Assembly: GCA_002269645.1 (NCBI GenBank)
Contig: NIVC01004040.1
Location: forward strand, 1-63,245
Origin: Macrostomum lignano
Taxonomy: Eukaryota
Direction: 5' to 3'
Length of the DNA stretch: 63,245 nt
The notes under the pieces were generated by a model. The model was not told where the DNA came from, did not search any database, and saw nothing but the letters and a program-made list of their open reading frames with translations. The first letter of the stretch is position 1. Every line of letters starts with the position of its first letter. The translations under genes were made by a program, and so were the position numbers. Of the stretch, positions 42,541 to 63,245 are shown piece by piece.

Positions 42541-44490
42541 TCGGTGCGCAATTGATGACGAATGGGCAGGTAAGTCAGCGAGTCAGCGAGTGATTCTTAA
42601 CCATCAAGTAGCATTAATTTAGCCCCTTTGGGATGTGATTTATCGTAAAAACTAGTAATTTTTCTTCCATAGCCGACGCACCCCTCCCAAAGACCCGTCG
42701 GGGTCGGAAAGATGTCCGCTCGAGCCTACTTTTTACACCAGGGTGCTACTGGTTCGATCAGTGGACGAATTGGCTGCAAATCTGCACTTTTTTAAATACA
42801 GGCTCGCCTGGGCTGTCTTTCAGTGAGGCACATCTGACGCTTTGCATGACTGCCAGAGGGTGTCGTGGCAACTTCACCTGACAGGCTACATCGTCTGTAC
42901 CGAGTCGTACTGTTCACAGCCGGTGCAGGTGCTGTTATTTGCACATGCCTTCGAGGGCAGACGCCCCAGATGCCAGATGTAAGAGGCCTTGAGACGCGCT
43001 TTGCAACGCTGTTTTTTCATAAATTTCGTTGCTCTGATACATCTTAGAAACTAAACAGCTCCATGGGTAAATCATTCAATTAATATGCTTACTGCGAGTT
43101 TAACAATATTTATAAAGTTTCATGATTTATTGTTGCTTTAGCAAACACAGAACCAAGTAAATTTTAAGCGTTAAGCTCCCGCTTGGAGCGAATATAAAAT
43201 ATCAGAGCAGATTTTTTCTAAACTGCTTAAGATGGTCTGCATGGCCCATAATAGTCATAGATGTTTCAATAAAAAGCCACTGCTCCAGAGTAGCCTGGAG
43301 CAGCGTACCGAGTCTCTCTGTATGAAGATCTTTAATCAAACAGCGATGCTGGGGTAGAAAAGTATTCGGTTCGGTAGGGCTGCTATAAAGGCAACGGCTT
43401 CAATGATGCTCTACTCCTTAAATGTACAAGGAATCTAGTTTCATTTTGCTGCTCATTATATAGGTGGATTCAGGTTATGCGAACGATTTATGCGAAAATC
43501 TTTTGTTCAAACTCTTCTGGTGCTGTTACTCTGTCCCTCCATTCCCTGTCTCTCCATTCCAGCTATTCAGCTGAGCCTTGAGAAATTTGTCTGTCTTTCC
43601 GCTGCTAAACTATTCGACATTGTCTGACGTCCAGGCCCCTACATCTGTTTTGCTCCACTGCCTGTCCTGTCAGGTGTGCTATCAGGTGCCTTGTCAAGTA
43701 GATTGCTTAAGTTTTGGGAAACTGGGGTGTCTGAGTACGGCTTTGAGTTTTGAGTTTCGCAGCTGCTTCTGAATCATCAACAAGTCTAAAAACAGAAATT
43801 ACGCTCGTGGCTCTGACAACAAAAAGAAACTGGTTAAATAGAAACAAGGCTTCAAAATTGCAAGTCTGGAGAGCTGGAAACTCGAAAATTCAGATGAATG
43901 GCAAAGATTTTAAAGTGAGCAGACCAAACATTTTTATCGGACAAAACGTAGCAATCGTGAATAACATGTCAAAATTCACAAGATATAGAGCTCAGACTCA
44001 GAGAACAATGGCATCAGAGTAGAAGGCATGAGGGGGCTTTTGGGACAAAATTTTTCACCTCCTCCATAATCCACCTAAATCCATCCATATTATCCCTGAC
44101 AGAATCAGAAAAAAAGGGGGGTCGCACTCGCTCCGAAAACATCGTCCATAATCCACCTAAATCCATCCATATTATCCCTGACAGAATCTTGAAAAAGGGG
44201 AGGGGTCGCACTTGCTCCGAAAACTTCGAACATAATCCTATTAAATCCATCCATATTATCCCTGACAGAATCAGAGCATTATCCCTGACAGAATCAGAGC
44301 ATAACAGTAGGACACCTGTTATGCTCACTGACAACGACATCCACCCATAGCATGTTCGAAACAATCAGAAAATAATCTGCATTCTTCTCCCCACATTCAA
44401 TTTGCAAAGCGAAACCAGATCCCTAAGACTTTAAATCCCCTAACCCAGGGTCCTCACCCTTTGAAAAAAAAATTAATTTCTCAATAAAAA

Positions 44491-44733
44491 ATGTTTCCAG
44501 TTGTCTCTCCAGGTTCTTATTACAAAGCGCACGAGCCCAATTACAAATCCAAGTACCGATGCAAACTTGAATGCAGCGAGTACATGAGAAAATATTGGCC
44601 CAGCGTTGATATCAATGTCCCTAATATTAATCTAGCTCTCCAAAGACACTGGTTTCATAAGTATGGAGTAACCTATGTAAAATATTACGACAGCTATTAT
44701 AACTTTGCAGAAATAATTAGGCAATTGTGTTAA
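44491..44733 (+). CDS. Small Tyr-rich hypothetical protein of Polinton 1
   Basis: 80-aa ORF with the same TAAAAAATG start context as the other element genes. Confidence 0.45.
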   Translation: MFPVVSPGSYYKAHEPNYKSKYRCKLECSEYMRKYWPSVDINVPNINLALQRHWFHKYGVTYVKYYDSYYNFAEIIRQLC

Positions 44734-44990
44734 AAAACATACTGAGTTCATTTATTCCCAAGTATATTTACATAAAACAGGAGGAAATAAGGAGGAAAGA
44801 GCAGACACTGAGTGTGCAGAGCTATCCGGCTGAGAATTTTCTTCCGCGACGTGTGCAAGCTAGTTGCAAGGTTGGAAATGAATGAAGGTAGAGAAAGAAC
44901 AAGATATTGTAGATCCTCGCACAATCCAAAATCGATATTCTTCGGATCCAGAATAATATTGATTTTCCTCCAAGTCATTTTGTGAACAGC

Positions 44991-45270
44991 ACTTTCCTGT
45001 ATTGTCAGGAATTCCTGTATTGTCAGGAATTGGCACGAGTTTAAAAAAATCCTGGAGATCCAGAAAAGTGTTTAGAAGACTACTATGAGTAGCTTACATT
45101 GATAAAATCCTGAAAAAATCCAGTAAAAAGACTTTCCTGTATTGTCAGGAATTCCTGTATTGTCAGGAATTGGCACGAGTTTAAAAAATCCTGGAAAAAA
45201 TCCTGTAGATCCACGAAAGTGTTGAGAAGACTACTATGAGTAGCTTACATTGATAAAATCCTGGAAAAAA
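44991..45270. repeat. 140-bp tandem duplication
   Basis: ACTTTCCTGTATTGTCAGGAATTCCTGTATTGTCAGGAATTGGCACGAG at 44991 and 45131. Confidence 0.9.
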
Positions 45271-46240
45271 AATTGTTGATAACTTAGAAGTCAATCTTCA
45301 TCAGCAACAAATGATTGGCGAAGTTCGTCAAACACCATTTCGGTTCTCATGGCATAGTTGCGAACCTGGGTCTCCTCGGCCGCTCTTGAACGAATTCGCT
45401 GGTTCTCAACTTTTTCATTGAAGAAATTGTGGAGAACTTCTTGAATTCGCTCTGATGCCTGTTCGTCGGCATCTAATCCTTCAATAAGGCGACCTTGGAG
45501 ATTTTCTAGGTCGGTCTAGTAGAACGTAATTTTTTGTGAACTAAAAATAAAGATTTAATTAAAATAAGAGATTTTTCAATTCCTCACACAGGATAGAATT
45601 TCAGTAAGTAAAAAAATGAATAAACTTACAACATAATGAAATCAGCAGCCACAACGGTGCAGAATTGCGTGACGAAGAACGTGAGCGAGCAAAAGGAGCT
45701 GAATTTTCTTGCTTGCTTTAACTAGCTTCCGAGCGATCGATTCCCTCCACCCGCTTCCTTCCCTCCAGTTGTCAAAGCGGAAAGGAATGCACGCGTGGAA
45801 CAGGGCTGCGCTCCCTCAGCAAATAGCAGTTACCCCACCCCTTTTCAAAATGCAGCTGTTGCGTTTGGCTAGGGCTGAGAATAATAGTTAAGCCCTTCCC
45901 GACTCAAGCGCCCCTCTCTACCCCCCCCCCATATTTTCATACCGTATAGACCAACTAGGCGGGCCCATGGTCTGTGGGCGGGCCACATTCCGAGGCCAAA
46001 TCGGCGGGCCGAGGCCAACTCGGCGGGCCAACTGGCCTCGCAATTTGGCCAATAATCAATATCAATCAAGGAGGGAATCTCAACATACACAGTCCATGCA
46101 TGCTAATGGCGGCGAAGCGGTTGACTTTTTATTTTCTGCTCTTAGCTCTCTGGAGAATGAGAATCTCTCTTGTGCGCAACTCTTTAGGGAATAAAAAACT
46201 GTACTTACTCAAATCCACACTTGCTCATGCCCTTCCCGAT

Positions 46241-46741
46241 TCAAGCGCCCCTCTCTACCCCCAGCTCTTTCAGCAGTCTTCCCAATTTCTTGTTAGGAGC
46301 GCACAAAATAAACCCTACTCCCAAGCCTCCGCCCTCTCTCCCCACGCACCCGCCCTCTCTCCCCAAACACCCACCCTCGTCGTCGATCCCCAACCCTAGC
46401 TTTTTCTTACCAAAAATAACCGCCTTGACTAATTTCCGAGCAATCGACTCACGAAATCCGCTTGAAGCCCCTATATTGTCTAGTCTCTTAAGCATTTCTT
46501 TGTCCCAGCGATTCTTCTCCTCAGGAAAATCTCTATATTTAACATCGTGCCACATGCAGACAGAGTCTAGCTCGTTCACAGGCTCATGCCCAGGATTTGG
46601 ATTATCGTTTGTATCTAACTGTATTTCAAGTGGATTCAAAGGCCCGCAATATTTATAGCCGGGAAGTGTCCAGCCTTTGTTCGGATGAGGAAGCTTTTCT
46701 ATCAGTCCATGTGAATCTAACTTACCACCAGAGCGTTGCAT
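46241..46741 (-). CDS. Parvovirus VP1u-like phospholipase A2 domain protein (PLA2X-type)
   Basis: TLPGYKYCGPLN..PVNELDSVCMWHDVKY, containing the HD catalytic dyad. Confidence 0.85.
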   Translation of the reverse strand: MQRSGGKLDSHGLIEKLPHPNKGWTLPGYKYCGPLNPLEIQLDTNDNPNPGHEPVNELDSVCMWHDVKYRDFPEEKNRWDKEMLKRLDNIGASSGFRESIARKLVKAVIFGKKKLGLGIDDEGGCLGREGGCVGREGGGLGVGFILCAPNKKLGRLLKELGVERGA

Positions 46742-46771
46742 TATTTTATTTTAAATTTTCTTTTTAAAAAA

Positions 46772-47806
46772 ATGACAGATCAGAAACTTAAAAAACTCTA
46801 CTACAGCGACAAAGGATTCTTTGTAGGAAAAAATTCCGTTAGTAAACTCATGGAGCTGAGTAAGGAATCAAAAGCTACAGTAGAAAAATGGCTCTCTAAG
46901 CAGGCTGTCTTTCAAGTCTATTTCCCACCAGTAAAATTTGAAAGGCCCCATTTCAGTATTTATAAACCTAATGAAGCGCACCAAGCAGACCTTTTGTTTC
47001 TCCCCAACGACTCAGGCTACAAGTATGCTCTTACAATTATAGACGTTGCTTCCAGATATAAGGAAGCTCGCCCACTCAAGACGAAGAAGTCAGAGGTTGT
47101 TGCCAGCGCACTGCAAGAGATCTATGAAACCTCTCCTCTAACCTATCCAGAAATGTTCATGGCCGATCAGGGTAAGGAATTCTATGGGGCAGTACGAAGT
47201 CTCCTACATAAGTATGACACAAAAATTCGCTATGGCAGAACAAACTTGCACAGAGACCAAGCGTACGTTGAGAGATTCAATCTAACTCTAGCCAAGAGGC
47301 TATTCACTAAGCAGACAGCGCAAGAACTCAAACTGAGTGCGGGGCAGTACTTTACCAAGTGGACAGACCGGCTCCCCACTGTTATAGAGCAACTGAACAA
47401 TGAAGTCACACGTATGACTGGATTGAAACCGTCCCATGCAATTAAACAAGACACTGTCGAACTTAAGGCATCTCATAAAACAGACAACACACACAACACA
47501 CACAACACACACAACACAAAACACACCTCGAACTACCCTAAGCTTCCAGGAGTTGAATCACCATACATACTGACAAACTCTGAGTTTCTACGCTTTTTAT
47601 ATCTACCTGGAGAGCTAGAGAAGGACACCAAAAGAAGAGCTACAGATCCATACTTCAGCCTTGATGTACATAAAATAGACAGACATTTTACCTCCGACTC
47701 CGGTGACTATTACTTTTTATCTCAGGCCTTTAACCCTAAATCCCCCACGCGGTCATTCACTAGAGCTGAACTCCTAGTGATACCAGCTGACACGGAAATT
47801 AATTAA
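46772..47806 (+). CDS. int: Polinton retroviral-like integrase (DDE)
   Basis: HQADLLFLP (D), MADQGKEF (D), YVERFNLTL (E) and C-terminal RSFTRAELLVIP. The ORF is intact; the ATG at 46772 is preferred. Confidence 0.93.
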   Translation: MTDQKLKKLYYSDKGFFVGKNSVSKLMELSKESKATVEKWLSKQAVFQVYFPPVKFERPHFSIYKPNEAHQADLLFLPNDSGYKYALTIIDVASRYKEARPLKTKKSEVVASALQEIYETSPLTYPEMFMADQGKEFYGAVRSLLHKYDTKIRYGRTNLHRDQAYVERFNLTLAKRLFTKQTAQELKLSAGQYFTKWTDRLPTVIEQLNNEVTRMTGLKPSHAIKQDTVELKASHKTDNTHNTHNTHNTKHTSNYPKLPGVESPYILTNSEFLRFLYLPGELEKDTKRRATDPYFSLDVHKIDRHFTSDSGDYYFLSQAFNPKSPTRSFTRAELLVIPADTEIN

Positions 47807-47822
47807 AATATTAAAATAAAAA

Positions 47823-48269
47823 ATGACAAAGATTGAAACTAGAACCCTCAATAAACTCAATAAAATAATTGAATCAAAGAAACCAGGTCTTATATCAATT
47901 AAAGGTGCCAAAGTAAAAGTCGATCCCGTGCAGCAAATAGTTCAGTGTAATGAGCAAAGACACAGCATCACAGATGAAAAGTCAGGAGGAATCCTACCAT
48001 TAGCAGCTCTTATTCCGATCATTGCAGGCGCTGTAAGTGCCGCAGGTGGTGTAGCTGGAGGTGTAGCAACTGCTGTTAAAGCTGGTAATGGTAGAGCCCA
48101 CCAGCTGGAATTGCAAAAGATTGCAAGAGATAAAGGTATAACAATTAAGGCAGGAGAGGGCTGCCCGGATTTTGATGATTGTGAGCATGAAAATTCTGTA
48201 AGCAAGTCTGACATTGTCAAAGCAATCATGACACTAAACAATGCTGGGTTTACAATAATGCGGATGTGA
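47823..48269 (+). CDS. Adenovirus pX/mu-like core or membrane-active protein
   Basis: GGILPLAALIPIIAGAVSAAGGVAGGVATAV, a GG-hydrophobic small-residue motif after a basic N-terminus. Confidence 0.65.
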   Translation: MTKIETRTLNKLNKIIESKKPGLISIKGAKVKVDPVQQIVQCNEQRHSITDEKSGGILPLAALIPIIAGAVSAAGGVAGGVATAVKAGNGRAHQLELQKIARDKGITIKAGEGCPDFDDCEHENSVSKSDIVKAIMTLNNAGFTIMRM

Positions 48270-48539
48270 TGAGGTTTAAAACCCCACTTTATCCAGCTTC
48301 ATAAACCTAGCGCTACTTATAGGATGTAGAAACAGTTCAACTTTTCTATCAGGGTGGTCACCCTCAAAAATTTTGTTTATTTTAGAGAAAAAAATGCCAA
48401 AAGCTAATCCAGCAAAAGATTTAGTCAACAAACATTTTTCAAAAGGCGTCTCATTTCAAGACAAAAGTAATTTACTAAGAGAAGCATGTAAACAAAAGTT
48501 TAACACCGACCCGGTCACCTGGGAAGCTATGAAAAACAG

Positions 48540-51500
48540 TTGGAAATCATCAAACAATTAGAATCCAACCAGTATGCGCCTATACAAAATCCTGCAAAGG
48601 AACACCAAGAGAGGAGTCGCAACTTAGTTAACAAATATGAAACTCTCACTGGTGAAAAAGCAAAGTACCCACAAAATAAGCAGGAACAAGAGAAATTAGA
48701 GCAATTAATCCATTTAAAAGAGTCGGAGCTTGCCATTGAAGAGATTAATTTTGCACAGAGGAAGTTTACAGAACATTACATAGAGTACACAATCCCAATT
48801 AACGGCACCAACGGCACCACCGCAAACATCTACGACTATAAAGACAGCATCCAATCAGTTGTTGATCACACACTCAAAACACGCAAGACCTTTAAACTAC
48901 AGATATCATTCAAGATTGCGTTTTATATGCCTGCAAAACCCACTGAACATCTCGAGTATTACATGACAACAAAGGCAAAGCCATTCACCCCTACAGACAC
49001 ACTGGATCCTTTCCTTCAAGATGTCACTAAGAAAATTGAAGCGTTTACATCCAGAGGTTCCGGATGGGTCGTGGGAGGGATTCAAAGAGCACTGTCATGG
49101 TCATGAAATATGACCCACTTAAAGCCTCCTCTTATATAGAGCTCCCGCATAAGCTAGCCGGTAAAAAAGCTTGCATAAATGTTAAAAATAAAGACAATTG
49201 CTGTGCTCTATGGGCAGTTCTTTCTGCACTTTTTAGTGTCCCTCACCACCCCGAAAGAACCTCAAATTATCAAAATTATTTCAACTACTATCTCATCGAA
49301 TGCGAAAAGAAGGGAATCAGGTTTGACAAAGGAGGCTTGGCGATCTCTCAGATCCCAAAGCTAGAAGAAGTGTTTAATAACAAAATTAGAATCACAGTCT
49401 TTGAGTGGAGTGAGAAAACTGAGAAAGTTCAACCGGTCAGATGTAGCAAAGACGTTTTAGATCCTGAGGGGAAAAGGCGGACTGAAGTGGATCTTCTAGT
49501 GATTGGTAATTTACTAGAGGAGGCTCACTATGTTTGGATTAAAGATCTTTCAAGACTCATTCACAAGCAGTTGAATAATCATCACGAGGCTGTTGCCATC
49601 TGCCGCTTGTGCCTTAAGCATTACAGTGGACCTGAACGCTTTGAAAAGCTAACAGAGCATGAATTATCATGCGAGGATCACCCGACAAACTGCTCTCTTC
49701 CTTCAGCTGAAGAGAAGTATCTCCGTTTTTAAGAACTATCACAAGATGGAGAAGCTCCCATTTGTTGTATATGCTGATTTCGAATGCTCAATCGTGCCAG
49801 AGACTCAAAAACAAACTCAAACTCAAAAACAAACTCAAACTCAAAAACATGTCCCGAATTCAGTAGCATATGCCTTTATTAATACAAAATGACTTCTTGA
49901 GTATTTATTATTTCTTTGGAGAGCAGTGTGTGGAGCAGTTTATTGCCAGAATGTTAGAGTTGCAAAGAGTGATTAGCACCCTTCAACCTATTCCAATAAG
50001 TATGTCTGAGGAGGATGAAAGCAATTTCCTATCAGCAACTCATTGCCACATCTGCAGGAAACAGTTAACTTGCACTGATATTAAAAACCCCACCGTTAGA
50101 GACCACTGCCACTTTACTGGGAAATTTAGAGGTGCAGCGCATAACACCTGTAATCTAAAGCTAAAATCAAACATTCATGATCTAACAATATTTTGTCACA
50201 ACGCAAAGAACTATGACATGCATTTAATAGTTGAAAAAATAGGCATGATTCCAGACATACACCTTGACTGCATCGCAGAGAACAAGGAGAAGTTTAAGTG
50301 TGTTGATATTAAACAGGATAATTCGGGTACAGGTAAAATAAGACTGAAGGATTCATATCAATTTCTAGCTGCCAGTCTAGACGAACTAAGCAAGAATCTA
50401 AAAGATGAACAATGTACTTTCACTAAGATATTTGCATGTAAAATTAACAACAGTGATGAATCATTTAAACTTTTAAGAAAGAAAGGCTTCTACCCCTATG
50501 AGAATATTACTAGGTATCACGTATTTGAAGAAGGTTTACCACCACAGGAAAAGTTCTTTTCAAAGCTAACAGACTCTGGAATCTCTGACAAAGACTATGA
50601 GCACGCGAAGCATGTCTATAATTACTTTAATTGTCAAAACTTTTTCCAGTATAACCTGCTTTACCTCTTCACAGATGTGTTTCTGCTGGCTGATGTGTTT
50701 GAAACCTTCAGATACACCTGGTACACAGCATATGGCCTCGATCCAGCACATTATGTGTCTCTGCCTGCCACTAGCTGGGAATCTTTGCTTAAAATGAAAT
50801 GGGATCAAGATCCAGATTGGTACATTGAACTTCTTACAGACATTGACATGTACAATTTTGTCGAATCGTCAAAGCGAGGGGGAATCTCAATTTGTGTTAA
50901 CAGGTATGCAAAAGCAAACAATCCCTACATTGGATCTTACAATAAGGAGCAGCCCTCAAACTACATTACTTACTTGGACGCTAATAATCTCTATGGGTGG
51001 GCGATGAGTCAAGATCTTCCAGTTAGAGATTTTCGATGGTTTACCCTCATCAGAACTAAAGTGGGACTTTTCATTGGCTGCCATTTATGAAGTTGATGTT
51101 TACATTCCACCAGAGCTTCACGACTATTTCTCTGACTTTCCACCCTTCCCAGAGAACATCAAGTGCCCGAAAATAATCGAAACTCCCAATGGAACTTGGC
51201 ACCTGTCAGGAACAGAAAAAGAACATACAGAGAAACTAACACAGAATCTAAACAACAAAAACACGTTACAAAATCCATTACAAACTGCTTCAATATTTTA
51301 TCTCACTGGGTTGCAGGGTCACCAAAGTTCACAGGGCTCTTACATTTACAGAGGAAGCTTGGATGAAACCCTACATTGATAAGAACACCCAGTTTAGGAC
51401 CAAAGCAACCAACGACTTTGACAAGAACCTCTTTAAGTTGGCCAACAACTCTGTCTATGGCAAGACTCTTGAGAATGAGCGGAAAAGAACAAACCTGAAA

Positions 51501-52249
51501 CTTGTTACCTCATCAGAGCCTGCTGTTATTCAGGCAAATATGTCAAAGCCAACATTCAAAGAACTCCATATCTTTAATAGCTACTTGGTGTGATCATATT
51601 TTACAAAACCAAGGTGACGCTGCGCAAGCCGATCTATACAGGTGTCACTGTTCTCGACGAATCAAAACGTCTGATGTACCAGTTCTTCTATGGCATGAAG
51701 CAGCAGTACAAGGATAAAATGAAACTCTTGTACACTGACACAGACAGTTTTATTATGGACATTCAAACAGAAGACATTTATCAGGACATGCTGCAGCAAA
51801 AAGATTTGTTTGACTTGTCTGAGTATGATGAATCTTGCAGGACACAGAATGGTGATCAAGTGTTTGACGCCACTAACAAGAAAGTGATTGGGAAAATGAA
51901 GGACGAGATTGCTGGTGACATAATCACTGAATTCATTGGGTTGAGAGCAAAGTCCTATTTTGTAAAATGTGAGTCGTCAGACTCAATTAAAAAATCAAAG
52001 GGAATTCCGAAACGTGTGGTTAGGAAGGAAATTAATGAAGCTGAATACAGAGACGCCTTGAATTGCAACAAAAAGACATCTCATGAGTTCTCAAAGCTAC
52101 AATCCAAAAACCATATTATTCACACAATTCGGCAAAAGAAGATTGGACTGTCAGGTGCAGATAACAAGAGATTCATTTTTGATGACAATATTAACAGTCT
52201 ACCGTTCGGGCATTGGAGGTTAGGTTTAGGAGGTGGGAGTTGGGTTTAG
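48540..52249 (+). pseudogene. polB: Protein-primed family B DNA polymerase of Polinton 1, split into 7 ORFs by ~6 frameshifts
   Basis: TP-like N-terminus ending GSGWV, YADFEC (ExoI), DHCHFTGKFRGAAHNTCNL (EndoVII/HNH-like insert), HNAKNYD, YLDANNLYGWAM, KLANNSVYGKT and YTDTDS. Confidence 0.93.
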
Positions 52250-52316
52250 GAGATTGGGTTTAGGAGGTTGAGATTAGGTTTAGGTTTAAGAGAAAGTTTA
52301 ATAAACCTCATAAAAA

Positions 52317-52718
52317 ATGACAACAAATAACTTTCTTGAAGATTTGGCTAACGAACTGGAAATCCCAAACTTTAGAGGAATATTTATGAGGGACACTCTG
52401 CCTGATTTTCCTCTAAGAAAGGAATGCGGCATCATGAACTTTGACACCACCGATAAGCCAGGATCTCATTGGGTTTGCTGGGTGATTGATCCTGATCGCA
52501 AGCACAAGTGTTATTACTTCGATAGCTATGGGACGGCAGTACCAGAAGAGCTAAGAAATTATATGAAGGGAAAAAAGAATAAAAAAATTTATCGCTCAGA
52601 CTTTATTCTCCAAGGTCTTAGCAGTGATATTTGCGGTGAGCTGTGCATGACTGTTTTGTATGCAATGACCAAAACACGAAAGACCTACAAGGAAATTATT
52701 CTTGGCTGTGTTTCATAG
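52317..52718 (+). CDS. Adenain-like cysteine (maturation) protease
   Basis: GSHWVC (His), YFDSYG (Asp) and LQ..SDICG (Gln/Cys). Confidence 0.9.
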   Translation: MTTNNFLEDLANELEIPNFRGIFMRDTLPDFPLRKECGIMNFDTTDKPGSHWVCWVIDPDRKHKCYYFDSYGTAVPEELRNYMKGKKNKKIYRSDFILQGLSSDICGELCMTVLYAMTKTRKTYKEIILGCVS

Positions 52719-52722
52719 GGGT

Positions 52723-53029
52723 TCATTGTGCATTTCTCGTCGTCCTTACCGAATTTCTCACCGTCCTTCTTGCCGACTTTCTTTCCACATAATGTTGAAG
52801 AACTTTATCGAGTTCATTTCTCAGCTGACTCATGTCATCAGTACCGACCATGTTCAAGTTCATTCGAATTGTTTGTTCATAAAGATCCTGAATGGTTTTG
52901 AACTCATCCTCTGAAATGAACTTATCCTCGATTGCCCTTGAAATGTACCCTATGATTGATGTGTGCACCCCTTTCTCTTTTACTTGCTTCTCCTGTAGCT
53001 GCTTTAGTTTTTTTCGCCTGTTTCGCGCT
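52723..53029 (-). pseudogene. C-terminal half of a conserved Polinton helical/membrane protein ('GasderminX'-like), 5' end removed by element 2
   Basis: KKLKQLQEKQVKEKGVHTSIIGYISRAIEDKFISEDEFKTI resembles the ISKAL.D..IS.EEF motif of this family. The frame is open up to the 53029/53030 junction. Confidence 0.5.
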
Positions 53030-53106
53030 AGTAGTAGGGCGAATTATGATACTGCCGCACTAGCACTGGCGAGATAGGCGGCAATGCAAATGTATAGGGA
53101 AAAATA

Positions 53107-53580
53107 CACTGCGGAGATATGAGCCCTATCTCTGTGCATTGGGGACGGCTAAGCACTGCAGAGATATGAGCTCTATCTCTGTGCATTGGGGACGGCTAAG
53201 CACTGCAGAGATATGAGCTCTATCTCTGTGCATTGGGGACGGCTAAGCACTGCAGAGATATGAGCTCTATCTCTGTGCATTGGGGACGGCTAAGCACTGC
53301 AGAGATATGAGCTCTATCTCTGTGCATTGGGGACGGCTAAGCACTGCAGAGATATGAGCTCTATCTCTGTGCATTGGGGACGGCTAAGCACTGCAGAGAT
53401 ATGAGCTCTATCTCTGTGCATTGGGGACGGCTAAGCACTGCGGAGATAGAGGCGATTCATGATACTGCCGCACTAGCGCTGGCGAGATAGGCGGCAAAAA
53501 GGATATAGGAAAAATACACTGCGGAGAGGATCCTATCTCTGTGCATTGGGAACGGCTAAACATTGCAGAGATAAGAGGGG
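53107..53580. repeat. 47-bp tandem palindromic repeat in the left TIR of Polinton 2
   Basis: Units at 53107, 53154, 53201, 53248, 53295, 53342, 53389, a partial unit at 53436 and a diverged copy at ~53517. Most units contain CAGAGATA-TGAGCTC-TATCTCTG. Confidence 0.95.
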
Positions 53581-53899: not shown

Positions 53900-55334
53900 A
53901 TGAAAACTTTTAAAAGTTGTCATAGAGACCTCTATGAGGTCTGTATAAGCTGCGAAGTGTGCCTGCTTGGAGGCGTGTCCCCAAGACACCACGAGAATGA
54001 GAACTGTCTGGTCTCATGCTGGTTGGCATGCGACCAGTGCGGCACCGTCGAAGCTCTGCAGGAGGGAAAAATTCCAGCATATCATCGAGGACACAAGATC
54101 GTCAGCGATGACAAGAAAAAGCAAGAAAGTAACCGCTGGAAAGTAATCCGCGCCATCAAAAAGAGCAACGAGAGAGAAAAGAAGAGCCAGCAGAAAAAGG
54201 GAGCCAGCAGGAGTCTGCTATCAGCTCACTTGAGTCAAGTAATTGACTCTACATTGAAGAGGATGAGGCCAAGCGGGTCTTCAGCAGCTGCAGAATTTGA
54301 AGTTGAGCTGTCTGCTGGAGTCGAGGCTGCTGGAGTCGAGGCTGCTGGAGTCGAGGCCGCTGGAGTCGAGGCTGCTGGAGTCGAGGCTGCTGGAGTCGAG
54401 GCTGCTGGAGTCGAGGCCGCTGGAGTCGAGGCTGCTGGAGTCGAGGCTGCTGGAGTCGAGGCTGCTGCTGTCATAAACTTCATAGAGGAAGATGTCCTGG
54501 ATCAGTTCCTCAGGGAATTCAACGCTGGTCAGCAGCAGCAGCAGCAGCAACCTGTCTCTTCGGTTCCGGTGATTGCTGGAAAACAACTTCATCTAATTGA
54601 AGACGACCACGAAATGGAAATCCTAGAAGAGGAGGGCAGCGACAATGAGTCGCATAATGCAATTGTGCCACCTGCAGCTCCAGCCGCCCCAGCTGCTCTG
54701 GCCGCCCCAGCTGCTCTGGCCGCCCCAGCTGCTCTGGCCGCCCCAGCTGCTCTGGCCGCCCAGCTGCTCTGGCCGCCCCAGCTGCTCTGGCCGCCCCAGC
54801 TGCTCCAGCCGCCCCAGCTGCTCTGGCCGCCCCAGCTGCTCCAGCCGCCCCAGCTGCTCTGGCCGCCCCAGCTGCTCTGGCCGCCCCAGCTGCTCTGTCC
54901 GCCCCAGCTGCTCTGTCCGCCCCAGCTGCTCTGGCCGCCCCAGCTGCTCTGGCCGCCCCAGCTGCTCCAGCCGCCCCAGCTGCTCTGGCCGCCCCAGCTG
55001 CTCTGCCGCCCCAGCTGCTCTGGCCGCCCCAGCTGCTCTGGCCGCCCCAGCTGCTCTGGCCGCCCCAGCTGCTCTGGCTGCCCCAGCTGCTCCAGCCGCC
55101 CCAGCTGCTCTGGCCGCCCCAGCTGCTCCAGCCGCCCCAGCTGCTCTGGCCGCCCCAGCTGCTCTGGCTGCCCCAGCTGCTCCAGCCGCCCCAGCTGCAG
55201 CCTCTACAATTCCAGCTTCTCAATCCGAAACTCCACCCGTGCCAGCTGGAGTTGCCTTCTTTCTGCCTCCTGTCGGCGGGGCTGGGTACGAGGTAACGAT
55301 TTTCGAAAATCGTATTAGAATTGTGCCGCTGTGA
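53900..55334 (+). CDS. Hypothetical protein: Cys/His-rich N-terminus, basic patch, (AAGVE)n and (PAALAA)n repeats; frameshift within the repeat
   Basis: ORFs 53900-55318 and 54645-55334 join plausibly through the 18-bp repeat array. Cys/His cluster: CISCEVC..HH..C..CWLACDQC..H..H. Confidence 0.55.
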
Positions 55335-57037: not shown

Positions 57038-60000
57038 ATGGTCCGAATAAGAGATGGGGAGATGCTTGCCGAAGAGGACAGATGGATAAGCTGTAAAATG
57101 CAGGCCCTAGACCTAGGTGGTGAAGCAGGCCGTTTAAACAACTGGTTGATTGAGCAGGAGCAGGAGTTGGAGAGGATCTGTAGTATGATTAATACGAACG
57201 GCAGTGGCTGGACAATTAAACAAATTAATTTTCTAGACATCAACCTTGCCAGGTACAATCCAATTCGATTTCGCCAGGGCAGAGCCGTTAGATTCAATCT
57301 TCCTGCCAGTTTGAAGAACAAAAAGGCTGTTATCAATCCACCGAGCACAGGCAAAGACTGTTTCCTGTACGCCTGTCTCGCTGCACTGCACAGCGCCGAT
57401 CCGAAAGTTCAGAAATCGCCCAACAGAATATCCTCTTACGATGAATGGTTGCGTGAGCTGGACTTTGCAGAAATCTCCATGCCAGTGAGTGTCGCTGATA
57501 TCGATCGCGTCGAGTCTAACAATCCAGGAATTTGCATTTCTGCGTTCTCTTGGCAGCAGGGCAGTGTGACTCTTCTCCGTCGCCGCAAGCATGAGTCAGA
57601 TGACCGAAGACACCTCATGCTTTTGCTAGTTAAAGACAGCTACGGATCGGAGCACTGGTGTGCAATTACTAATTTTGACAGGTTAATGAACAGTCGTAAT
57701 GGTCCCGCCATGAGGAAGTGGTGCACGAAATGTTTAACATCATTTTATAGCAACGAGAGGCTTCAAGAGCACAGGAACGAATGCAGCATTACTGCAGAAA
57801 ATCCTGTCAAAGAAACGCTTCCAGTTCCAGGACAGAATGAAATAAAGTTCCGAAACTGTCAAAACACTGTCAGTCCACCATTCGTTGCCTATGCCGACCT
57901 GGAAGCCATTTTGCGAGCGAACACAGACCCTGCTAACCTGATCTCAAAGCATGAACCATGTGCAGCAGCTTTTCTTGCAGTGCCTCGTGAAGGCATGACA
58001 GGACCTCCGCTTAGGCCAGAAGGAGACATGTACAAGGTCTTTTGCAATGCGGACCCTGATGAGTGTATCCTTGGTTTTCTCAAATCTCTTGAAAGCCTGG
58101 CTCAGGATATATTTCACTGGAACCAGAAGCATAGCCACCAGCCGGCTGACCGATCATCCGCGACCGTCATGGATGATTTCAATTCTGCTGAGGTATGTCA
58201 CTACTGCAAGAAGAACTTTAAAAGTTCTACAGATAAACATTTTGACCACGATCATTTAAATGGACAGTACAAAGGTGCAGCATGTCAAGAATGCAACCTG
58301 CGAGCACAGCTCCGACGCCGGTTTCTGCCCCTGGTTTTTCACAACTTAGGCGGCTACGACCTTCATCTTCTACTTTCCACTGCGCTTGGGAGCATGAAAA
58401 ATTGGAAACTTAGTGTTGTTCCGCAATCATCCGAGCGATACTTGTCACTAAGGGCGGAATTCCCTGTTGCAAGTTACGTAAAGAACGGAAAAGTTGTGCC
58501 AATCATGTTTACAATTCAGTTCATCGACTCGCTCTGCTTTTTGAAGGGAAGTTTGTCCAATTTGTTTGCTAATCTTCCCGAAGCTGAATGCAAGCTGACA
58601 ATGCAAATGCTTGAGTCAAGACCACATCTTTCAAGAGAGCTACTTCGAAAAAAAGGGATTTTCCCATATGATTACCTCACAGGATTTGAGATTCTCGAGC
58701 AGTCGGTTTTGCCGCCTAAAGATGCTTTTTTTAATCGACTTTCCGATCGGGGAATTTCCGACGACGACTACAATAGAGCAAGAGCGGCATGGGCGGCATT
58801 TCAATGCAAAAGTTTGAAGGATTATATGCTCGCCTATCTTGAAATGGATGTAAGGCAGCTGGCTGACATTTTCGAGACATTCCGACAGGCCAGTCTGAAA
58901 GAGGACGGATTGGATCCGGTACACTACTTTACTACTCCTGGTTTGTCTTACGACTCAGCTCTAAAGTCGACTGGAGTGGTTCTAGAGCAGCTGACTGATG
59001 CTGACATGTATCATCTGTTTGAGAAGGGAATACGAGGAGGCATGTCCTTCATTAATGTGCATTGCGTCAAAGGTAATAATCCTAGCTTGCCAGGTTATGA
59101 TGATCAGCAAGAGAGTGTAAGCCTCATGCCGATCGATATGAACAACTTGTATGGCTTTGCCCTGTCGCTTCCGCTTCCATGCAGGGAATTCAGGTGGGTA
59201 CCGGAACAGGAAATCCAGTTCTGGGACTCCAATCGGTTTCTGTCACTCAATCCAGAAGCCGAGATCGCCTACCTTGTTCAACTCGATCTAGAATACCCAG
59301 CTGAGATTCACGATTCGACTCAGGAGTTACCGTTTGCACCTGAAAAATCAAAACCACAGCCAGATCAATTCTCGCCGTACATGGCCGAACTATGGAAAGA
59401 GATTGCTGAACAGCGAACTGGCAATGCTGAAGCTAAGTTTCAAGCAACGGAGAAGCTTCTACTCACCTGTACCGACAAGGATTCTTACGTAGTTCACAGC
59501 ACCGTTTTAAGATTTTACCTGCAACACGGAATGCGGATCAAGTGCGTCAAAAAAATGATTTCGTTCAAGCAGGAAAATATTTTCGCGCCGTACATTGCCA
59601 GCAACAATGAAAAAAGAGCTTTGGCAACTTCCGAGTTTGCTAAGGATTTTTACAAATTGAAAAACAATTCTCTCTTTGGAAAAACTATGGAGAACGTTCG
59701 AAAAAGATGCGATGTTCGAATTTGCACTAACCAGACTCAAGCAGAAACTTGCGCCTCTCGACCAAACTGTGCCGCATTCTCGATTATCAATGAGTCGTTG
59801 AGCATTTTTCAGCTCAAAAAAGATAAAGTCACGCTTGACAAGGCCATTTTCGTTGGCCAGGCAGTTCTCGATCTCTCTAAGATGGCCATGTACAGCCTAC
59901 TATATGACAGGCTCCGACCGCTGTTCTGTCATTCAGACGGTTCCAGAGACATGATGCTTTGCGGAGGTGATACTGACTCATTTTTTCTAGCTTTCAAGAA

Positions 60001-60496
60001 TCATGATTTAACATCGGAGGTAATCCCGAAGCTTAGAGAGGAAAAAATACTTGACACATCCAACTATTCTCGAGACCATCCGCATTTCTCTGAAGAGTTA
60101 AAAGGAAAGCTGGGCTGCGTTAAAGATGAATCTGCTGGTGGAATTTACCAGGAGTGGATTCTTTTGCGTCCAAAACTTTATTCGTTTCTCCCTGCCGAGA
60201 ATTCGAGTGCAAAGATCAAGAAAACTGCCAAAGGCGTGAAGCAGTCAGTAGTAAGACAGCAAATTTCGCATGCGAACTATGTCGACGCGTTCGAGTCCAA
60301 GCAAGAGCAGATGGTTGCCATGACAGCGATTGTTTCCAAGAAACACGAAATCTTCACGTCGGTCATGGAGAAAAGAAGCCTATCGGTGTGGGAGGATAAG
60401 CGAGTGTGGCTTAGCAGTAATCGAAGCCTGCCCTACGGACACTATGCGCTGACGCCCGCATCCCACGATCAGCTGAAGCGCATCCGACTGGTCTAG
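57038..60496 (+). CDS. polB: Intact protein-primed family B DNA polymerase of Polinton 2 (frame open from 56834)
   Basis: NGSGW, YADLEA, DHDHLNGQYKGAACQECNL insert, FHNLGGYD, YLEMDV, DMNNLYG, KLKNNSLFGKT and GDTDS. 1152 aa with no stops. Confidence 0.96.
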   Translation: MVRIRDGEMLAEEDRWISCKMQALDLGGEAGRLNNWLIEQEQELERICSMINTNGSGWTIKQINFLDINLARYNPIRFRQGRAVRFNLPASLKNKKAVINPPSTGKDCFLYACLAALHSADPKVQKSPNRISSYDEWLRELDFAEISMPVSVADIDRVESNNPGICISAFSWQQGSVTLLRRRKHESDDRRHLMLLLVKDSYGSEHWCAITNFDRLMNSRNGPAMRKWCTKCLTSFYSNERLQEHRNECSITAENPVKETLPVPGQNEIKFRNCQNTVSPPFVAYADLEAILRANTDPANLISKHEPCAAAFLAVPREGMTGPPLRPEGDMYKVFCNADPDECILGFLKSLESLAQDIFHWNQKHSHQPADRSSATVMDDFNSAEVCHYCKKNFKSSTDKHFDHDHLNGQYKGAACQECNLRAQLRRRFLPLVFHNLGGYDLHLLLSTALGSMKNWKLSVVPQSSERYLSLRAEFPVASYVKNGKVVPIMFTIQFIDSLCFLKGSLSNLFANLPEAECKLTMQMLESRPHLSRELLRKKGIFPYDYLTGFEILEQSVLPPKDAFFNRLSDRGISDDDYNRARAAWAAFQCKSLKDYMLAYLEMDVRQLADIFETFRQASLKEDGLDPVHYFTTPGLSYDSALKSTGVVLEQLTDADMYHLFEKGIRGGMSFINVHCVKGNNPSLPGYDDQQESVSLMPIDMNNLYGFALSLPLPCREFRWVPEQEIQFWDSNRFLSLNPEAEIAYLVQLDLEYPAEIHDSTQELPFAPEKSKPQPDQFSPYMAELWKEIAEQRTGNAEAKFQATEKLLLTCTDKDSYVVHSTVLRFYLQHGMRIKCVKKMISFKQENIFAPYIASNNEKRALATSEFAKDFYKLKNNSLFGKTMENVRKRCDVRICTNQTQAETCASRPNCAAFSIINESLSIFQLKKDKVTLDKAIFVGQAVLDLSKMAMYSLLYDRLRPLFCHSDGSRDMMLCGGDTDSFFLAFKNHDLTSEVIPKLREEKILDTSNYSRDHPHFSEELKGKLGCVKDESAGGIYQEWILLRPKLYSFLPAENSSAKIKKTAKGVKQSVVRQQISHANYVDAFESKQEQMVAMTAIVSKKHEIFTSVMEKRSLSVWEDKRVWLSSNRSLPYGHYALTPASHDQLKRIRLV

Positions 60497-61078
60497 TGCG
60501 GGTGTTTAACAGACTGTTTAGTACTTTTTCTTGCTTTTAGAGTTGTTTAAATTGCCAAATTCTGTTTTAAATGTAGTGACTTGCATGTAGTAACTTTTAC
60601 AAATTTGTATGCTTGGCTAATTGCGCTAGATTTAGCTGTCAATTTGTTTTTGCGGCGTGAAATATTGATATCAATTTAAGTTTTACTTTTTATAAAGCTG
60701 TGTGGCAAGTGCGCTCATACAATATTAATTCATTTTTGTTTGCTTTGTGTACTACTTGTTTAAAATGTGTTTTTGGTTTTTATCTGACACAAATTGTTCC
60801 TGTAAATTCAATCAGCGTTTTAATCATATTTTCTCTATCACTTTTCTATTTCTCTTCTCTCGGTGCACATCGTTTGTTATAACGATGGTAGTATTGTTTA
60901 CTTTCGGATTTGATATGCGTTTTGCGATACTTTTGGTGATGGGCTAAATACGTTTTTGAAGTGTTCCATAGCTGTCTGCCTGGGAAAATGAATGTAAAGA
61001 ATACCAAGTTTATCCTTTTATTCACTTTTCACTAATCATTGAAATATTTGCGGCAAATTGCTTGACTTGACTTTATTT

Positions 61079-61651
61079 TTATTCAATGGAAAGAACTACA
61101 TTGAGTAGACGCATGCTATCGGTATGCAACTGATTCAAGGACCGAGCTCCACTGAGAACAAAAGAGCCGCTGTGAAAAAGCAGACATTTACAAAAGTTTA
61201 AATTGAAAATTAAAGCAGAAAAGGATTCTGGTTCATATTCGGCGTTTGGGATAATTGATTTTAACATTAATAAGGAAAGTGCGGAATGAACTGGGAGCTG
61301 TCCATGAGCAGTAATAGTTTTAATTCGAACACAAATTGTTTGATGAGGCAGCAGTTGAGCCGGCACTCTCCGATGCAGCATAGCCACGAAGCGACGGGCA
61401 GCCCTTTTGGCGTCTGCGTGGGTCTTGGCACCGCAGATGCTCAGTTGCCCAGTAGGGTAGAGTAGGAGAGTCACTCTGGGAATCCGCATCCGCTTGATGA
61501 GCACCCGGGGCCAGACGGGCCGGTAGATCACATGAGCCATGCTGAGAGCCAGTTCCCGTAGAGGCAGCTGAGCGCCCCTGCCACCATCCAGTCTCAGATC
61601 TACTCCGCCAACCAGATTGGTCACTCTTAGGGCTGTAGCTGGTGGGCTCAT
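61079..61651 (-). CDS. Divergent TATA-box-binding-protein-like protein (two TBP repeats, ~190 aa, intronless)
   Basis: Repeat 1: VTNLVGGVDL..IYRPVWPRVLIKRMRIPRVTLLLYPTGQLSICGAKT. Repeat 2: IKTITAHGQL..AEYEPESFSALIFNL..CLLFHSGSFVLSGARS. Confidence 0.88.
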   Translation of the reverse strand: MSPPATALRVTNLVGGVDLRLDGGRGAQLPLRELALSMAHVIYRPVWPRVLIKRMRIPRVTLLLYPTGQLSICGAKTHADAKRAARRFVAMLHRRVPAQLLPHQTICVRIKTITAHGQLPVHSALSLLMLKSIIPNAEYEPESFSALIFNLNFCKCLLFHSGSFVLSGARSLNQLHTDSMRLLNVVLSIE

Positions 61652-62171
61652 TTCGATCGTCAACTTCTTCACCAAATCTGCTTCTGCCAACTTTACTGCT
61701 CGTGTGCCACGGACACTGCTCGCTTCTTAAGTTGATGCAGAACTTTGGCTTAAGCCAACTGTAGTGCAGCAACGAATTTCTCACTGCACAGCCAGTATCT
61801 GAATCTTCAGTCGAGGGTGCTCCCAAATCTTCTAGGTTATAAACCTGTCTTCCAAGCAGCTCAGTCAGAAAAATCGACTTCCTTTCCCCATTTGACCAGA
61901 TCGGACCACTGGCAATGCTCAGAATGTCTTCCGCCAGTTCCATGTACGGACGGGTTCCATCATTCCACTTAAACTGGTGCAGACTCTTAGATAGCTGTCT
62001 GTAGTAAACTCGCATGTCAGGTGAGACTCTCTCCCATGGATACGGAGGTGCGTACACATGGTGAGCAATGTGGTAGCTCCCCGCTCTGATTTGAACAACT
62101 GCCAACTCCTTCACAACAAATTTTTTGCTTGTGCTGTTGCACGGGAATCCTTGGAAGTCAATGTAGTTCAT
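61320..62171 (-). CDS. Polinton DEDD/DnaQ-like exonuclease-fold protein; ORF runs on over the TBP-like gene
   Basis: YIDFQGF..FVVKELAV..APPYPW..HQFKWNDG..NGERK..VYNLEDLG..CAVRNS..W. The conserved part ends at ~61730. Confidence 0.65.
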   Translation of the reverse strand: MNYIDFQGFPCNSTSKKFVVKELAVVQIRAGSYHIAHHVYAPPYPWERVSPDMRVYYRQLSKSLHQFKWNDGTRPYMELAEDILSIASGPIWSNGERKSIFLTELLGRQVYNLEDLGAPSTEDSDTGCAVRNSLLHYSWLKPKFCINLRSEQCPWHTSSKVGRSRFGEEVDDRNEPTSYSPKSDQSGWRSRSETGWWQGRSAASTGTGSQHGSCDLPARLAPGAHQADADSQSDSPTLPYWATEHLRCQDPRRRQKGCPSLRGYAASESAGSTAASSNNLCSN

Positions 62172-62200: not shown

Positions 62201-62893
62201 TCAGTCCACCTTCTTATATACTTTTCTGGCAGGCAATTTCAGCCAGGCTGTGTTGCTCCCGTACCCCTTGACTAGACTCTCCTGTTCTTTCTCCAGTTCA
62301 CCCCCTCTGCTGGTTGCCATTTTCTTCTTAACTGATTTACCAACAGCGGAAAGCGGAACATTAAGCTTTTTCTGCTGCAGAAAATCGATGAACTCGTTCC
62401 ACCCAACTGGTTCACGCTCACATGGCGAATCCCTCACTGTGTGCTGAATCAAGTCCAGTATGTTTGAGGAAGGGATTGACGTGCCTGCGATTTCCACCTC
62501 CCCGTTTTCACAAACTCGAATCAGCTCTGGATTGGTGGACAGGATCGTCCACAGACTGCGAGCCCTGGTTTTGAATTTCTGTGGCACCGACTTGCTGATC
62601 TTCTCTTCCCAGGTGCTTATCTGGGGTGTCTCTGTTTTCATCAACTTGGCTTCAGTATTGCGTGCTCCTTCTTTTCCAGCGTGCTTGCGCTTGGCCAGCA
62701 AACTTTGCATTGCACTTTGGTACATGGCGGTTTTCACATCTTCTGGACAATCCTCGGCATACAAGATGTCATCGCATTTCTTCTGAGCCTGCTTCAAGTC
62801 AGCTTCAGTGGTAGTCTCATTTGGCTTCAAATTCTGCATCAACATCTCATACTCTGCTTTAGGAATCAGAACCATTTCTGAAAATTTGTTCAT
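62201..62893 (-). CDS. Conserved Polinton hypothetical protein
   Basis: EMVLIPK at the N-terminus and NGEVEIAGTSIPSSNILDLI..PVGWNEFIDFL..NVPLSAVG, the pattern of a common Maverick core ORF. Confidence 0.7.
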   Translation of the reverse strand: MNKFSEMVLIPKAEYEMLMQNLKPNETTTEADLKQAQKKCDDILYAEDCPEDVKTAMYQSAMQSLLAKRKHAGKEGARNTEAKLMKTETPQISTWEEKISKSVPQKFKTRARSLWTILSTNPELIRVCENGEVEIAGTSIPSSNILDLIQHTVRDSPCEREPVGWNEFIDFLQQKKLNVPLSAVGKSVKKKMATSRGGELEKEQESLVKGYGSNTAWLKLPARKVYKKVD

Positions 62894-63195
62894 TTTGCTT
62901 CTTCTTCTTTACCAGCTTAAGCAGAATCGGGAGTATTTTGATGAAGCCAGCCTTCAACAAGTCTGTCTTTCTTCTTTTGTGAGTAATTTTTCGAATTATC
63001 TCTTTTGACTTTGCAAGAACAGCTTTTTCATCGAGCGAAAACGATAGATTGTTTTGTAAGAGATTATGGCAGGCCTCGACAAGAAAATAACGCACTTCTT
63101 TTGGACAATTTTTTATCAACAGCCGCTTGAAGCGCACGGTATATTTAGGTGACGCAAGAACCGCAAAAGACTTGCATATGAATCAAGCACTTCCA
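62859..63195 (-). CDS. Small basic Polinton core-like protein, probably frameshifted near 63140
   Basis: LVEACHNLLQNNL..EIIRKI..AGFIKILPILL resembles the EC..N.L.GN...GGFL family. The upstream ATG (MEVLDSY) is in another frame. Confidence 0.55.
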
Positions 63196-63245
63196 TTGCG
63201 ATGAAAACAATAGCTGATAAAAACAAGCTTCACTTTCTTAAGCAA

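Follow-up and report, generated by a model that had tools for sequence, protein, structure and literature searches.

A TATA-binding-protein-like gene carried by Polinton elements of Macrostomum lignano and its candidate promoter box

The TBP-like gene and the elements that carry it

The window analysed in this work is a stretch of 63,245 nucleotides of Macrostomum lignano DNA (contig NIVC01004040.1, assembly GCA_002269645.1), in which a gene for a TATA-binding protein (TBP)-like product of 190 amino acids lies at positions 61079..61651 of the minus strand. It is a single-exon ORF with two TBP repeats and no N-terminal extension, and the two AATAAA hexamers at its stop codon (61072..61083, minus strand) are a likely poly(A) signal. 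Repeat 1, in the N-terminal half (61373..61627, minus strand), is overlapped in another frame by ORF283 and is co-inherited with the capsid/packaging cassette, while repeat 2, in the C-terminal half (61097..61330, minus strand; coordinates transferred from identical copies), holds the YEPE stirrup, F144 and F159 and is co-inherited with the polB-side arm of the element. The protein matches PF00352 in Pfam over two stretches (E 7.9e-25, 87 bits; curated cut-off 22.9 bits), and the top match of a sequence search in the PDB was the archaeal TBP 1mp9 (E 2e-18). An AlphaFold model built from 11 natural sequences gave a mean pLDDT of 83 and a pTM of 0.74, and 44 PDB matches to it were obtained with Foldseek at E<=0.001; those listed were TBP or TBP-containing chains, nearly all with TM values of 0.75-0.82. 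Viral TBPs (BFVD) superposed less well on the model (TM up to 0.72) than cellular ones (~0.8). The predicted model thus adopts the saddle fold of the TBP family, with a TM of ~0.8 to solved TBPs, and the original prediction of an intronless ORF of about 190 residues with both TBP repeats agrees with the profile as well as with the structure searches.

The element begins at position 53030 with a left terminal inverted repeat (TIR; 53030..53369) that starts with AGTAGTAG; the 47-bp tandem repeats that had been claimed for it are present in this TIR (53107-53452). On the plus strand there follow a terminal ORF (53900..55318) with a Cys/His-rich N-terminus and an otherwise repeat-rich sequence, which has TATATAA (53791) and TATAAA (53842) upstream, and the gene for a protein-primed DNA polymerase (polB; 57038..60496; PF03175, E 2e-12), convergent with the TBP-like gene. 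On the minus strand, the latter is accompanied by ORF283 (61320..62171), made up of a conserved domain of ~156 amino acids that has no Pfam family and a tail that overlaps the 5' half of the TBP-like gene by 332 nt; by ORF230 (62201..62893), a conserved core gene without a Pfam family; and by a homologue of ORF112 (62860..63197), the frame of which is broken in the window copy. The contig ends inside the element, and the remainder was taken from other natural copies. In this family, which we call A, elements are 16.7-16.8 kb long with TIRs of ~340 bp. The left arm consists of TIR, terminal ORF and polB, and the opposite strand carries, in this order, the genes for the TBP-like protein, ORF283, ORF230, ORF112, ATPase, protease, putative major capsid protein, basic core protein, putative minor capsid protein, integrase with chromodomain and a PC4-like protein, before the second TIR.

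Several of these features are those of Polintons. The TIRs have AG-rich ends, and 6-bp target duplications were legible in three copies (C114, C738 and C530) among ten regions examined; polB is combined with an integrase (rve, E 3e-13, plus the chromodomain), and an adenain-type protease (Peptidase_C5, E 7e-5) with a packaging ATPase for which only weak P-loop matches were obtained in Pfam. The 427- and 272-amino-acid ORFs had no match in Pfam or PHROGs; by size, position and resemblance they are putative major and minor capsid proteins. Both the location of the TBP-like gene between polB and the core cassette and its position inside the TIRs were borne out.

The gene was found in many copies and in two Polinton families, so that it is not a one-off of the window. 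A search of the genome with the family-A protein, in which 150 of 231 candidates were scored, gave at least 152 matches, at least 32 of them full-length at 99-100% identity, with further tiers down to 75%. The second family, B, encodes a TBP-like protein with 38% identity to that of family A (68 bits against PF00352), for which 17 near-full-length matches were found at 93-100% to its own query. These raw counts overstate the numbers of insertions, since host TBP and TRF2 are each present three times in the assembly (L079, L083); the cores of both host genes consist of one exon. In 62 short loci around TBP matches (30, 12 and 20, from best-scoring or chosen full-length matches), an ORF283-like neighbour was present without exception; polB could be recognised in 29 of 30 and in 10 of 20 loci of family A, and 12 of 12 family-B loci had a PC4-like gene. 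The stretch was covered in 20 of 24 sequencing runs, none recorded as RNA, and contigs of four runs spanned all 30 bins, intergenic DNA included, with no informative joint. The window element is itself inserted, at 53030, into a copy of a third, unrelated and TBP-less Polinton family (44018-53030), in which PLA2-like, integrase, Adeno_PX-like, broken polB and protease genes were observed, and the protease of which has at least 150 matches in the genome.

Both TBP-bearing families encode a PC4/p15 coactivator domain (PF02229) downstream of a canonical TATATAA (L041:2280-3056; L056:9363-9797), with scores over the cut-off of 25 bits in family A (32.6 and 26.8) and just under it in family B (24.1 and 23). 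In a family-B element (L060) the PC4-like gene converges on the TBP gene and polB lies at the opposite end, both terminal genes being in a TIR-borne TATATAA context. A profile search for TFIIB, which could miss a very divergent one, gave 15 PF00382 matches among 23 genome candidates, at a few host-type loci and none at the places of the TBP-like genes; nor was a recognisable RNA polymerase found in the ORF lists and Pfam scans of the elements. Of the basal transcription module proposed to be encoded by the element, the TBP and a PC4-like protein are therefore present, and TFIIB was not found.

Selection, origin and exchange of the two repeats

Comparison of the window copy with 25 other distinct family-A genes gave dN/dS values of 0.05-0.31 for the N-terminal half (codons 1-111) and of 0.09-0.27 for the C-terminal half, where four pairs were saturated; copies of family B are too similar for informative dN/dS values. 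Being well below 1, these ratios indicate purifying selection on the TBP-like gene. The protein is 27% identical to host TBP and 25% to host TRF2. A quick tree, which covered the 126 rows (of 161) with no more than 260 amino acids and held no identified giant-virus row, placed families A and B and seven run- or metagenome-derived proteins in one clade (SH-aLRT 98), separate from both host proteins. Among 1.8 billion proteins searched at E<=1e-30 there were eight matches, seven from this clade and one duplicated plant TBP.

These data bear on the idea that the gene is a captured retrocopy of host TBP, a passenger without function, as its lack of introns, shared with the core of the host TBP gene, might suggest. 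Identity to host TBP of just 27%, the separate clade, the low dN/dS and a reading frame that stays intact across nine different C-terminal halves (see below) all stand against this explanation, which we hold to be extremely improbable and which can be regarded as effectively refuted already. Judging from the sequence comparisons, this is an old element lineage and no recent retrocopy.

Relatives were also sought beyond the flatworm. No Polinton genes were seen at the 11 of 32 metagenome loci that were examined; their TBPs were ordinary archaeal or eukaryotic ones, with one possibly giant-virus-like. On one metagenome contig (L116), a divergent TBP was observed beside genes resembling giant-virus genes. 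A scan of viral contigs gave no relative among 31 candidate stretches. Thirteen short TBP-like proteins of 169-203 amino acids (P0015, P0028, P0050, P0060, P0065, P0067, P0073, P0080, P0085, P0094, P0104, P0112 and P0117), many with F-H-[TNS]-G in repeat 2 and some with F-P-[NT]-G in repeat 1, could possibly represent a wider set of element-borne TBPs.

Within family A the gene is a mosaic, with an approximate boundary at codons ~110-118 (61297..61321, minus strand) between a homogenised N-terminal half and divergent C-terminal halves. In several tiers, codons 1-110 are near-identical to those of the window copy (dS ~0.06), with saturation beyond codon ~112-118, and the 26 family-A genes fall into three clusters by the N-terminal half and nine by the C-terminal half. 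The DNA downstream of the TBP stop codon largely tracks the C-terminal half, and in copies C114, C529 and C130 polB is 46-48% identical to that of the window, as against 85-99% for the proteins of the capsid cassette. This divergence of C-terminal half and polB relative to N-terminal half and cassette implies an exchange of arms with its boundary lying between repeats 1 and 2, each time without loss of the TBP frame. The integrase and PC4 genes at the other end of the element also diverge separately.

The mosaic boundary coincides with the end of the overlap between the upstream ORF (ORF283/293) and the 5' half of the TBP-like gene, which exists in both families: the upstream ORF is open over the first 110 (A) or 129 (B) TBP codons with an equal frame offset; at the observed codon usage, a frame open for so long has a probability of ~0.01 in each family. 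Within the overlap, the dS of the TBP-like gene (0.49-0.62) is slightly lower than in other cassette genes (0.65-1.9). A functional sequence in the ORF283 tail finds no support, the tail being unconserved, with an own-frame dN far above dS (0.25 vs 0.06). A programmed ORF283-TBP fusion was rejected: the fused frames present in some copies join at differing places, a pattern like that left by single-base indels or assembly errors. The predicted fold of ORF283 has a pLDDT of 32, and a resemblance to Maelstrom-like nucleases (score 0.88) is a weak lead. The simple reading of the mosaic is that the better-conserved N-terminal half stays competent for recombination; a bolder one would be that repeat 1 reads the boxes of the cassette and for this reason has to remain linked to it.

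DNA face, stirrup and candidate promoter box

The DNA-facing residues were compared with the yeast contact list given in Table 1 of PMC12529657. Equivalents of yeast N69, V71, L114, F190, F207, E186 and E188 are retained in all 26 family-A genes. As the original prediction had it, repeat 2 keeps both intercalating phenylalanines (F144 in YEPESF, equivalent to yeast F190, and F159 in LLF, equivalent to F207) together with the acidic YEPE stirrup, of which E140 and E142 are invariant in the 26 family-A genes and in 13 of 13 sequences spanning both families, next to a variable L189 position. The Trp and Tyr that had been placed at the corresponding positions of repeat 1 fared differently: Y65 does align with F116, and W47 falls one residue before the first intercalating Phe, the position itself being taken by P48. 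HMMER and MAFFT agree on this alignment, in a region where the register is uncertain because the model is unreliable (residues 37-47, pLDDT <50). In place of the four intercalating phenylalanines of canonical TBP, all 26 family-A genes thus have P, Y, F and F, with the Trp adjacent to the Pro of the F99 position, and in the central Asn pair N69 is retained and N159 has become Thr. The changes F116>Y, V122>S, T124>C, N159>T, V161>T and T215>S are invariant in family A, the P191 position is mostly Ser (S/T), and T112, K155, C73 and Y65 (element numbering) are identical in 13 of 13 aligned sequences. Several of the same DNA-facing residues are missing in host TRF2 too. The combination A100P/P191A belongs to the idea of a "reversed TATA", for which no confirmation was found in the literature.

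The acidic C-terminal stirrup, which is the TFIIB contact of TBP, is thus present as in canonical TBP, and its residues predict that the element protein would contact TFIIB. A DNA face that is altered but fixed, together with a retained host-factor face, is what would be expected of a re-specified TBP, and is also compatible with a decoy that does not bind DNA; with Pro at the F99 position and N159 lost, the protein may even have no affinity for TATA-like DNA.

A candidate for an altered binding site is the octamer YWTAAGAA, found on the sense strand upstream of most inner genes in both TBP-bearing families, whereas terminal genes in both have the canonical TATATAA. In the window, CTTAAGAA lies 80 nt before the TBP start, within the coding sequence of ORF283 (61724..61731, minus strand), and again before ORF112, 3 nt from the end of the contig (63235..63242, minus strand), while ORF283 is preceded by TATATAAGAA (62211..62220, minus strand), which matches the variant box as well as a canonical TATA. 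The 10-kb cassette of family A contains six CTTAAGAA boxes (0.53 expected; 0 of 200 shuffles) and family B seven YWTAAGAA boxes (1.59 expected; 1 of 200 shuffles); in the window taken as a whole, boxes are about as frequent as expected (4 vs 3.3). In three elements, 8 of 8, 7 of 7 and 5 of 6 sense boxes, and no antisense box, lie within 160 nt before a start, a distance set after seeing the matches and applied with three of ten family-B starts approximate. Upstream of the TBP gene itself, all 50 family-A loci examined have the variant box, and 11 of 12 loci of family B have TATAAAAG. Boxes in coding DNA fall in different frames and involve, at three sites, the rare codon pair TTA-AGA (TTA makes up 7% of Leu codons), sites that are kept across diverged lineages (host-gene dS 0.9-1.9); this argues for constraint at the DNA level. 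No full box precedes the genes for the protease and ORF230, and in one lineage of family A the box of the capsid gene contains a mismatch. Three copies of the TBP-less Polinton family had no match to the TBP profile and one to three scattered YWTAAGAA each, so that the association of gene and box is one of two related families against one control family. The earlier suggestion that the protein could retarget Pol II to element promoters receives indirect support from this strand-specific box before inner genes, absent from the TBP-less family.

Two other explanations of the box and the protein were weighed. In one of them, host TBP would read the canonical box and, weakly, the variant box as well, and the element protein would be a decoy or repressor that ties up TFIIB or other partners of TBP through the retained stirrup, with early or host genes being damped. 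The invariant E186/E188 equivalents beside altered residues at the F99 position and at four central sites of the DNA face could be understood in this way, and single-change boxes are tolerated by wild-type TBP, as in its crystals with G(-26) and T(-30) boxes (PDB titles). We nevertheless find it unlikely, given that the changed DNA-facing residues are invariant instead of drifting (26 of 26 in family A; four of them in 13 of 13), that the box pattern is absent from the TBP-less family, and that a box with three changes such as CTTAAGAA would be a poor site for host TBP.

The second explanation takes the box for an initiator or RNA-processing signal rather than a TATA-type element, with the TBP-like protein acting elsewhere, for example on the TIRs or together with a different polymerase system. 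TAAG is the late initiator of baculoviruses and is contained in YWTAAGAA; the distances from box to start are spread over ~35 to 150 nt, and the 47-bp arrays in the terminal repeats are conserved. Against it, in two copies an ATG located 12 nt past the box is followed after a few codons by a stop, and the start in use lies 42-51 nt away, which fits a transcription start ~30 nt past the box, and there is no recognisable RNA polymerase in the elements. On balance it seems to us quite improbable.

A possible transcriptional switch and its relation to known systems

These elements carry a genuine TBP variant that is under selection, a candidate promoter to match it and a gene for a PC4 partner, and the TBP variant is mosaic at the level of its repeats. 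The reading that we favour, and consider moderately probable, is that the element TBP recognises YWTAAGAA and brings host TFIIB and Pol II to the inner genes, the terminal genes being started by host TBP; binding, recruitment and timing are all things that we infer. Host TBP would initiate the terminal genes from canonical boxes (PC4-like, terminal ORF and, in family B, polB). The element TBP would then bind YWTAAGAA, recruit host TFIIB and RNA polymerase II and activate the putative capsid, core, packaging and integrase genes, with the PC4-like protein serving as coactivator or single-strand binder. The outcome would be a built-in early-to-late switch in a Polinton. In family B, with its TBP gene behind the canonical TATAAAAG, the order would be plainly early to late. 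The TBP gene of family A lies itself behind the supposed late box, which counts against the switch, as does the possibility that host TBP reads YWTAAGAA weakly; in family A, priming of its expression by host TBP or read-through from the TATATAAGAA box of ORF283 would be needed, and the protein would subsequently feed forward on itself.

A more far-reaching proposal, that of a minimal private transcription code, combines a re-specified TBP reading YWTAAGAA with host TFIIB/Pol II and the PC4 of the element and treats the two repeats as separate modules; we put it forward tentatively and would sooner doubt than accept it. According to it, repeat 1 would stay with the box cassette, locked by the overlapping frame, and the host-facing repeat 2 would be swapped along with the polymerase arm.

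Given a dedicated TBP with a box of its own, gene control and a possible virus-like late phase of Polintons could be tested directly: one small protein and a site of 8 nt would suffice, in a flatworm kept in the laboratory. If true, this would in addition be a naturally occurring TBP of altered specificity, and the natural half-swaps would reveal which repeat sets specificity.

A TBP-like gene in adintovirus-type elements is already in print as a label: in Starrett et al. 2021 (PMC8502044; bioRxiv 10.1101/697771), "TBP" appears in the legend of Figure 5 for an adintovirus/MELD virus, that is, as here, for a midsize linear dsDNA virus with an adintovirus-like polB. It is an abbreviation in that legend, and the available text of the article holds no carrier virus, promoter, residue or function analysis for it. 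The portions available of PMC10748475, PMC8097293 and 10.64898/2026.06.19.733378 make no mention of TBP, TATA or PC4, and the "PC4" in the corresponding portion of PMC11662393 was discarded as an unrelated label.

Cellular TBPs, eukaryotic and archaeal, have in common with the element protein the two-repeat saddle fold and the retained residues named above (N69, V71, L114, F190, F207, E186/E188). The element protein differs from them in being ~25-27% identical, without an N-terminal extension, with a short insertion after the first strand, with Pro and a neighbouring Trp at F99, and with P191>S/T and V203>K. The host paralogue TRF2/TLF likewise combines the TBP fold with changes at several intercalating Phe positions, but retains one of the C-repeat phenylalanines where the element protein retains both. 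Giant viruses (Nucleocytoviricota) and haloarchaeal viruses also encode the TBP fold, the haloarchaeal proteins being 26-28% identical to that of the element and the giant-virus ones matching at 8-21% identity, less well than cellular TBPs (BFVD). Giant-virus TBPs are usually accompanied by TFIIB and a viral RNA polymerase, and the pairing of TBP with TFIIB was not found in the elements.

The closest parallel in function may be the TBP mimic of beta- and gammaherpesviruses, described in PMC12529657 for KSHV ORF24, which acts at a TATTWAA late promoter and is more polar at V122, T124 and V161 (Table 1 therein). As far as that description goes, both systems combine a TBP fold that has a more polar DNA face with a variant TATA upstream of virion genes, lack a viral RNA polymerase and have host-type promoters at their early genes; the YWTAAGAA pattern corresponds to the variant TATA box before late genes, the lateness of the element genes being predicted. 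The herpesviral mimic is a large protein with an N-terminal Pol II-binding domain that belongs to a multi-protein activator complex, in contrast to the element protein, a bare, stand-alone core of 190 amino acids that retains the TFIIB stirrup. The likeness is thus a functional analogy, in which the element protein may work alike without being a member of that group. If this proves true, it would be the smallest known viral TBP to redirect host Pol II, convergent with the herpesviral one and with the TFIIB route retained.
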